Shown in pieces: positions 1,718-2,882 of a stretch of DNA of 64,000 nucleotides. How positions within the stretch are numbered: the first letter of the stretch is position 1; every line of letters begins with the position of its first letter. The translations under genes were made by a program, and so were the position numbers. The stretch is from Lobosporangium transversale (taxonomy: Eukaryota), in the NCBI RefSeq assembly GCF_002105155.1, contig NW_019028989.1:434001-498000 (forward strand), read 5' to 3'. The notes beneath the pieces were generated by a model that had not been told where the DNA came from, ran no database searches, and saw nothing but the letters and a program-made list of their open reading frames with translations.

Positions 1718-2882
1718 TATAGCCCGTTTCATTTGGTCACGATACCTTATATTTTTTAAATTGATTGAATAGACTCAAGCGAAAATTGAATTGTATTGAA
1801 TAGCAACTCTAAATCCGATGTCGTTCGCTACTTGCAAGCTTGGCTCGCTGTCCTCTATTTGCACGCCGAGCGACGGAAGAGGTCAGTGGCTTTGACGTTG
1901 AATAACTGTTATGCGTCACTATGTTTTGCTTCCTTACCTTCACTCTAGCTCTCACGCAACACAATCAAACATGATGATCGTCAAATTCACAGAGTTCCAT
2001 CAAGTAAGTAATAGACTATCTTTTTTTTATCATTTACCTGCGCTTCCTAATTATTTGTGAGTAATCTCTGGTTTCTTACGATGAATAGACGCGGAATCTT
2101 TCGATCCAATGAGAACATCGCAGCTTCCTTCTCCCTTTTCTTTTTTTTGACCTTGGAGGTCGTTACAAGGAGACGCCAGATGTTCTGCTGATTCGAACTG
2201 GCCACTACCCATAGTGGGGAAACTTTTTGAGCAGGTCTTTGACCTTGTGCAAAAGTTTCAGCCCTCCGGTTTTAAAAAGATTCTGTCAAGCATCTGAGTC
2301 TTTTCTTTTTTTTATATTTTCTTTTTCTTTTTCTATGGCTGCTGAGGGATATACGAAGAGACGCCAGACATCTCACTGATTCGTTAACTGCCCACTATTT
2401 ATAGTGATGGAAACTCTTGGTCTTTGACCCTGGTTTCAGCAACCCAGTCGTATCGAATCACAAGGGTTCTGGCTCTATTTCTTTTTTTTTTCTATTTTTT
2501 TTTTCCCCCTCCAAGACATGGTTCCGCCTTGGTTCTTGCTATCTCCTGCCAGCTCGCCAGGTCTGACCACAAGTTGCCGTCTGTTCTCCGTCGCGGAAAA
2601 TGGATAATATGATTATTTTTTTGCATGGTATTACAAACGCAAGGCCTTTATTCAAACCTACAACATGCAACTCGACATCGAGACCAATTTTAACCATCAT
2701 ATATACTCTGAAGTAATATTAGGCCAACCAAGATTTTACCCATTCGCACACTCGGATTCTTAGCAGCTGTCGGGCCGCGGTTTTTGTCGAGGCGTGGATG
2801 AGGATATCGTGGGCAAGACTCTCAACAATGTTTATATTTCGTTGGAATAACAAAAAGCATCAAGCATTAAAGTCGAATAACA
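1718..2882 (+). repeat. Left terminal inverted repeat (1165 bp)
   Basis: Reverse complement of 7162-8514 apart from one 188-bp unit. The same 62-aa ORF appears at 2424..2612(+) and 7432..7620(-). Confidence 0.95.

Follow-up and report, generated by a model that had tools for sequence, protein, structure and literature searches.

The stretch of DNA analysed here, referred to below as the window, comprises 64,000 nucleotides of Lobosporangium transversale (GCF_002105155.1, contig NW_019028989.1, positions 434,001 to 498,000) and contains, at 1722..8510, a Sailor (IS630-Tc1-mariner, DD88E) transposon of 6789 bp. The element and its immediate surroundings are made up as follows:

1718-1721 and 8511-8514: TATA target duplication, flanking the Sailor element
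1722..2885, + strand: left terminal inverted repeat (TIR) with two repeat units; 188 bp shorter than the right TIR and the published copy
2909..4623, - strand: second, spliced gene, predicted PD-(D/E)XK nuclease, convergent with the left TIR transcript
3250-3480, - strand: nuclease exon with the PD...EVK motif
4952..6775, - strand: transposase, 607 aa, catalytic D244, D365 and E454 (DD88E)
7159..8510, - strand: right TIR with three units (A, A' and B)
7676-7863 and 7864-8051: 188-bp tandem repeat of the right TIR
8533-8722, no strand assigned: MITE with the terminal ~40 bp of the Sailor element and no units

The DD88E spacing falls within DD78E-DD111E, the catalytic spacing range of Sailor (PMC8533490), and the TIRs and the TATA duplication are present. 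The window element matches, as read by eye, the deposited sequence of Sailor-Lobtra, which has been described as 6979 bp long with TIRs of 1362/1354 and a transposase of 607 aa, and which belongs to an L. transversale family of 9 copies, 3 of them intact (PMC8533490). The extra-long TIR was remarked on in that paper without being explained; according to its Table 1, the TIRs of all other intact Sailors measure at most 237 bp, and the Sailor of Mortierella sp. (2427 bp, 368 aa) has 53-bp TIRs. In its main text the word "nuclease" has 0 occurrences, and "RNA" appears once, in an unrelated context.

The two TIRs of the window copy, of about 1.16 kb and 1.35 kb, are identical apart from the 188-bp difference. 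An initial annotation of this DNA, made from the letters alone, had counted two units on the left and three on the right, which is correct for this copy but does not hold as the general layout, because each TIR of the published copy contains A, A' and B (PMC8533490). In addition, the read depth of the A' junction equals that of A and B in the DNA runs X3 (A' junction 1251, A lead 1277, B 1074; shared body 2755) and X2 (as listed, 129, 115 and 101; shared body 247). Judging from these sequences and depths, three units per TIR are the norm, and the left TIR in the window has lost one, either through a deletion between two identical 175-bp blocks or through their collapse in the assembly. The window also differs from all sequencing runs and from the published copy at 2460 (and its mirror), where the change gives the predicted stem of unit B one extra base pair, and at 5326.

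The MITE, which is ~190 bp long, lies 18 bp from the right end of the element and is very deep in DNA runs; it probably represents a high-copy family moved by the Sailor transposase. Since it keeps only the terminal ~40 bp, the units are not required for cutting. Farther away, 58757-58841 matches 6788-6875, just upstream of the transposase, at 76% over 88 nt and looks like the remnant of a related element. The adjacent host gene, at 9381-13007, carries DUF3712 domains.

The transposase has relatives in Mortierellaceae and Rhizophagus. The product of the second gene is predicted to be a PD-(D/E)XK nuclease on the strength of sub-threshold matches: HSDR_N was matched with an E of 0.0011, below the cut-off, and Foldseek on a nuclease model gave HsdR N-terminal probabilities of 0.80 and 0.94 at E above 0.001, the other weak structural matches being PD-(D/E)XK nucleases. 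The E-x-K is nearly invariant across 58 homologs. Models of the nuclease homolog reached a pLDDT of 38 from a single sequence and of 85 when based on an alignment; the alignment-based model had no Foldseek match at E 0.001, and there was no solved relative by sequence. Neither RuvC, HNH nor ToxN was among the listed sequence and structure matches. The family is widespread in Mortierellaceae (66 representatives and many unnamed homologs), and in an atlas search only unnamed Mucoromycota clusters were returned, the N-terminal exon giving no match. In gene models P0002 and P0110 a Sailor transposase is fused to pieces of the nuclease family, indicating that the two-gene layout recurs. The nuclease intron joint 3173>3253 was seen in a variant copy, and at least two diverged copies of the gene with internal deletions occur in the same runs. 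The reading frame is broken near 3660-3680, where DNA reads and the published copy (PMC8533490) have another homopolymer length, and the break is probably an error of the window sequence.

The repeat units lie in a transcript that is read inward from each TIR and whose features are:

1971..2112, + strand: upstream ORF of 18 codons, 11 of them in exon 1 and 7 in exon 2, with intron 1 between
2004..2088, + strand: intron 1 (mirror 8144-8228, - strand; joint 8143>8229, CT..AC, depth 25000 in run X6)
2089..2627, + strand: exon 2 with the unit array, bounded by splice joints (mirror 7417-8143, - strand)
2152-2159 with 2508-2515, + strand: predicted 8-bp helix enclosing the array, pairing probability 0.9
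2170..2302, + strand: unit A of the left TIR, predicted rod and three-way junction
2171-2184 with 2289-2301 and 2196-2201 with 2266-2271, + strand: predicted rod of unit A
2202-2217 and 2219-2259, + strand: predicted junction hairpins of unit A
2358..2476, + strand: unit B of the left TIR, diverged, predicted fold as unit A
2628..2722, + strand: intron 2 (acceptors 2713 and 2722; mirror 7322-7416, - strand; depths 5051 and 9519 in X6)
7568..7686, - strand: unit B of the right TIR
7742..7874, - strand: unit A' of the right TIR, with a B-type lead and an A-type body
7930..8062, - strand: unit A of the right TIR

Three GT..AG joints on the inward TIR strand were found in X6, an RNA-like run whose library type is guessed, at depths of 25000, 9519 and 5051, and the same joints have a depth of 0 in the DNA runs X1 and X3. 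We have little doubt that the TIR gives rise to an expressed RNA. The X6 depth is of the order of 10,000 over the TIR, 0 at 6934-7180, and 13-17 on the transposase and main-family nuclease contigs; TIR RNA is thus apparently about three orders of magnitude deeper than transposase and nuclease RNA, in a single run from one study in which contig depth ranks expression poorly and the TIR counts twice per element. RNA contigs extend without a break over exon 1, over unit A and across the A' junction, and tract lengths in exon 2 differ among copies. No long ORF follows the 18-codon frame in the TIR transcript, which is essentially non-coding. The transcript has no inward A or B box and no tRNA (ARAGORN: 0). 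The ATGATGA at the start of the 18-codon frame (1971) also fits a C box, the only one found in a search for snoRNA (C/D or H/ACA box) and SECIS features that gave no SECIS pattern in the units and no Rfam match; SECIS, C/D box, tRNA-like, TPP and U1 readings were all rejected against their consensus sequences.

Three further observations concern the sequencing runs. Zero X6 depth over the U-rich tract 2298-2344 was considered as a sign of processing and set aside, the tract being flagged as a skipped repeat. Run X8, labelled as another organism and likewise guessed to be RNA, holds over 7282-8253 spliced TIR pieces only, identical and at a depth of 3-7; they are probably cross-talk from a very abundant RNA and are not counted as support. 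In run X9, over 2349-2500, all listed G positions of one contig read A and all C positions of a second contig read T, those in CpG among them, and within unit B 18/18 G and 13/13 C are changed. RIP-like hypermutation was ruled out for these changes, as conversion of every G or every C is a bisulfite signature; X9 is probably a bisulfite library, a type inferred from this pattern, and unit B is then probably unmethylated.

The initial annotation had described the units as tandem structured RNAs with a three-hairpin fold, here called the cloverleaf. The motifs that it listed for unit A (GGAG/CTCC, GCCAG/CTGGC, CTGATTCG, CCACTA/TAGTGG, GAAAC/GTTTC and GGTC/GACC) are all where it placed them, and those of unit B and the GCCGG variant are as it gave them. 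Its unit boundaries were too short: folded inward, the units so delimited give z of -1.10, +0.12 and -0.92, no better than shuffles, and the units are ~35 nt longer. With this extension, the inward fold has z of -3.0 for A, -2.8 for B and -2.6 for A', and the outward fold -0.8, -2.05 and -0.9, respectively. When the TIR was folded in 24 stepped windows, those covering A and B ranked first, each with z -3.6, and a z of -2.5 is reached by 0/70 background windows. A, A' and B, folded separately, all reach one shape, and the models suggest that the units are probably ~130-nt rods capped by a three-way junction, and that the cloverleaf is probably wrong.

The predicted unit consists of a basal rod, an internal loop with CTGATTCG, a 4-7-bp stem and the three-way junction, which is formed by a short hairpin, a long GAAAC...GGUC-UUU-GACC...GUUUC hairpin (core pairs with a probability of 0.95-1.0) and a C-rich linker. 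Of the fold proposed earlier, the two 3' hairpins survive, whereas the GGAG/CTCC closing stem and the GCCAG/CTGGC hairpin have, in the context of exon 2, a pairing probability of 0.00-0.01 and are 8 kcal/mol less favourable than the rod fold. The CACTAT/ATAGTG pairing claimed for unit B would leave a 2-nt loop, so that the stem has 5 bp, and the "variable 7 nt", which had been taken for a loop, find their partners in the 3' arm of the same unit, and that arm changes between A and B together with them. CTGA and TCAG occur in all units, both sides being invariant, and could form an H-type pseudoknot across the junction stem, which is sterically plausible.

Unit-swapped arms, in which the 5' arm of A pairs with the 3' arm of B, are predicted at ~0.55 versus ~0.35 for local rods, and A' folds locally; both the local and the unit-swapped forms retain the junctions and the GGUC-UUU-GACC hairpin. 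For exon 2 as a whole, the outward fold (z -3.6) is better than the inward one (z -2.1), so the strand is set not by energy alone but by splicing. Upstream of the array, at 2148-2161, lies a small hairpin, GACCT-TGG-AGGTC, whose two strands follow each other in the opposite order to those at the tip of the long hairpin; it has 10 nt in common with that tip and may be a remnant unit or a switch partner.

Sequence variation provides a further view of the fold. Contigs from the sequencing runs together with A' gave 13 usable substitutions in related sequences. The 11 that are fully seen touch 8 rod pairs, and 8/8 are kept inward, comprising five changes from Watson-Crick to G-U, two from G-U to Watson-Crick, and one double change from U-A to C-G. 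Random transitions keep 8/8 pairs with P about 0.006, a figure to be read with the facts that 7/14 differences of the main variant contig and 3/4 of another are unlisted, and that the helices were named after the variants were seen. With two partly seen changes at loose ends, which break a terminal pair and one with an invisible partner, the count becomes 8/10 (P about 0.07). The outward strand keeps 4/10 pairs, the five G-U wobbles working only on the inward strand, and the cloverleaf keeps 7/10, being broken at 2175 and 2265, which are both unpaired in the rod. In unit A', all three changes keep or improve rod pairs. We consider it likely that the fold is under selection. The view of the initial annotation that the units work at the RNA level and are not simple binding sites in DNA is supported, for the inward strand, by the spliced transcript, the G-U-preserving changes and the unit-free MITE.

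A second family may be represented by a 211-nt contig that starts and ends within a unit (X2 and X3), and that probably derives from a separate amplification, in which A-type units recur in tandem about every 181 nt. A homolog of the units beyond these runs was found neither in pattern scans, nor in transposase scans, nor in a covariance search. The pattern scans gave 9 matches in viral contigs and 112 in metagenomes, none of them with more than two of four additional features of the units; a blastn comparison with the element gave 0 matches among the 121 loci. A covariance model and an Rfam scan had been proposed with the initial annotation: the model, built from A and A', recovered the five window units, B with 23 bits and an E of 0.0025, and otherwise chance-level matches only, while Rfam yielded 6 weak matches in 1600-8800 (E up to 10), none of them on the units. 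The transposase scan of viral contigs gave 0 matches, and that of prokaryote genomes one short contig at 31%. This contig, of 1.9 kb, belongs to a Bacteroidota MAG (L122:693-1571) and encodes a Sailor-like transposase, which may reflect contamination or a bacterial Sailor.

The simplest reading of a conserved junction that recurs along an abundant RNA is a protein-binding module, and we lean towards this function for the repeats. The predicted nuclease would be the likeliest partner, a circumstantial choice that we make only tentatively. It is based on the co-occurrence of the long TIR and the second gene, the excess of the RNA, the convergence of the two transcripts, and their opposite levels in variant copies. 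Among the Sailors of PMC8533490, the longest TIR and the second gene coincide, in one case. One X6 contig contains spliced nuclease sequence that continues to 2791, within the last exon of the TIR RNA, and the two RNAs are therefore likely to overlap. In variant copies, taken as one family, depths are 1046-1644 for the TIR RNA and 246 for the nuclease RNA, compared with 25000 and 13-17 in the main family.

Our best explanation, put forward as a possibility, is that the TIR RNA restrains, as a brake or an antidote, the predicted nuclease that the element itself encodes. Each long TIR would be transcribed inward to give a spliced RNA whose exon 2 carries three ~130-nt predicted rods; the repeats would be multivalent protein-binding modules, whose dose is raised by tandem copying; the RNA, in large excess, would bind the nuclease via these repeats, and its last exon would pair with the convergent nuclease mRNA at the 3' end of the latter. 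The outcome would be a DNA-cutting cargo without harm to the host, or an element whose loss is made costly. In its full form, the proposal has a fungal cut-and-paste transposon carry a nuclease toxin that a multimeric RNA encoded in both TIRs neutralises; this would be an addiction module with an RNA antidote, and the RNA would represent a new structured class. That form is doubtful. Against the brake or antidote itself count the competition between rods and unit-swapped arms, the better outward fold of exon 2, the single run behind the expression data, the fall to 8/10 kept pairs, the wide spread of the nuclease family in Mortierellaceae and the sub-threshold basis of the nuclease call, and also that the partners of known RNA antitoxins are ribonucleases that cleave them, and not restriction-like enzymes (PMC5086665).

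The type III toxin-antitoxin systems ToxIN and AbiQ likewise place a nuclease gene of a mobile element next to tandem repeats of structured RNA made in large excess (PMC5086665). However, their repeats are 36-nt pseudoknots located upstream of the toxin in one transcript, whereas the modules here are ~130 nt long and the TIR RNA is eukaryotic, spliced, separate and convergent; in addition, the predicted protein is restriction-like and not a ToxN/AbiQ-type endoribonuclease. By analogy, the TIR RNA would work like a type III antitoxin, but it is not one. The nearest nuclease-bearing architecture is that of KolobokP, likewise a DDE transposon of eukaryotes in which the terminal repeats are long and a nuclease is encoded by a second gene; it differs in having direct repeats and a nuclease with a His-Me finger, and the abstract describing it reports no RNA (PMC9587614). 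Sailor-Lobtra itself shares with the window copy the terminal sequence, the TATA duplication, DD88E, the 607-aa transposase and three units per TIR, one TIR here being 188 bp shorter; the main text describing it contains no TIR transcript, units or second gene (PMC8533490).

Alternatively, the abundant RNA could act as a decoy for Dicer, Argonaute or another dsRNA sensor of the host defence, keeping the element unsilenced. Decoy RNAs with repeated modules include adenovirus VA RNA, NORAD and CsrB, and VA RNAs are products of Pol III. The TIR RNA, with its apparently very high level and its irregular ~130-nt rods separated by U-rich linkers, resembles these abundant RNAs, to which it has no sequence or Rfam similarity and from which it differs in being TIR-encoded. 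A role of this kind, similar to that of VA RNA, would fit the probable absence of methylation from unit B (X9, library type inferred), although low methylation may be genome-wide, and the young, intact state of the family (9 copies, 3 intact; PMC8533490). The TIR RNA is spliced and has no inward A or B box, unlike the VA RNAs, and we regard this explanation as unlikely.

We give still less weight to the two readings in which the RNA is a precursor or a messenger. Stems between single-stranded U-rich linkers resemble a polycistronic hairpin precursor, from which Dicer- or RNase III-type cutting would release small RNAs or ~130-190-nt species acting on transcripts of the host or the element, and the 5' arm is conserved while the 3' arm drifts. 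However, conservation is as high in the terminal junction hairpins as in the stem, which sets the units apart from miRNA precursors, the longest perfect helix has 8 bp, and RNA contigs span units and junctions, so that cutting would be at least incomplete; such an array seems quite improbable. A micropeptide mRNA, with the units as cis elements of a long 3' UTR that affect stability, escape from nonsense-mediated decay or localisation, is marginally less probable again. Its first ATG, at 1971, stands in an A-rich context and opens the 18-codon frame, and the RNA appears abundant although its stop codon lies far upstream of intron 2, a position that would normally trigger decay, but the repeated amplification of the unit is left unexplained.

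The proposal of the initial annotation that the RNA is a guide or scaffold for the nuclease or transposase, or else a self-cleaving ribozyme with a CUGA/UCAG pseudoknot, has little in its favour. Fanzor/TnpB omegaRNA systems do occur on IS630-Tc1-mariner elements, with a RuvC nuclease and a flank-derived guide, and there, too, a transposon combines an accessory nuclease with a structured RNA at its end. Here, in contrast, the RNA runs inward inside the TIR, so that no flank-derived guide results, it is multimeric and made from both ends, the variable segment is paired, and the nuclease has no RuvC or HNH match. Ribozyme arrays can be tandem, which the ~188-nt period resembles, the H-type CTGA/TCAG pseudoknot is possible, and CTGATTCG is invariant while its 3' partner changes between units; nevertheless, the units lack the known core motifs of the hammerhead, hairpin, twister, twister-sister, pistol and hatchet ribozymes, and have no Rfam match, which for the HDV ribozyme was the only check. 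It is equally improbable that the units are decayed DNA duplications or transposase-binding arrays transcribed by chance with an incidental fold: the identical A and A' bodies leave few independent data, no homolog outside the species was found in the scans made, and exon 2 folds as well outward, but the G-U pattern is strand-specific (8/10 inward versus 4/10 outward), the units are the best-folding TIR windows, and the MITE has none.

Judged by title, PMC8533490 alone concerns the Sailor element among the papers found on Lobosporangium and transposons. Literature searches, with Repbase records and subscription papers outside their scope, listed no TIR-encoded structured RNA and no paper on a Mortierella transposon TIR with a non-coding RNA. 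The extracts of PMC12730594 and PMC13297926 contain nothing specific to a TIR RNA, and a fungal RNA screen (PMC8216456) avoided transposable elements, and would therefore not have covered it; the extract of that paper does not mention Mucoromycota. Thus, the element is the published Sailor, while the TIR RNA, its modules and the second gene are absent from the main text of PMC8533490 and from the results of these searches. Together, the 7-kb element and its culturable fungal host offer a testable system.

In summary, TIRs are usually seen as DNA handles for the transposase. The Sailor TIR of L. transversale doubles as the gene for a spliced RNA, apparently very abundant, whose repeated fold has no counterpart among the Rfam families; this explains why it is the longest TIR reported in the Sailor superfamily. 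If this RNA restrains the cargo nuclease, the two would constitute a protein-RNA toxin-antidote pair in a eukaryote and would provide a handle on a large, unannotated family of restriction-like proteins of Mortierellaceae. If instead it titrates host silencing, it would be the transposon counterpart of viral decoy RNAs.
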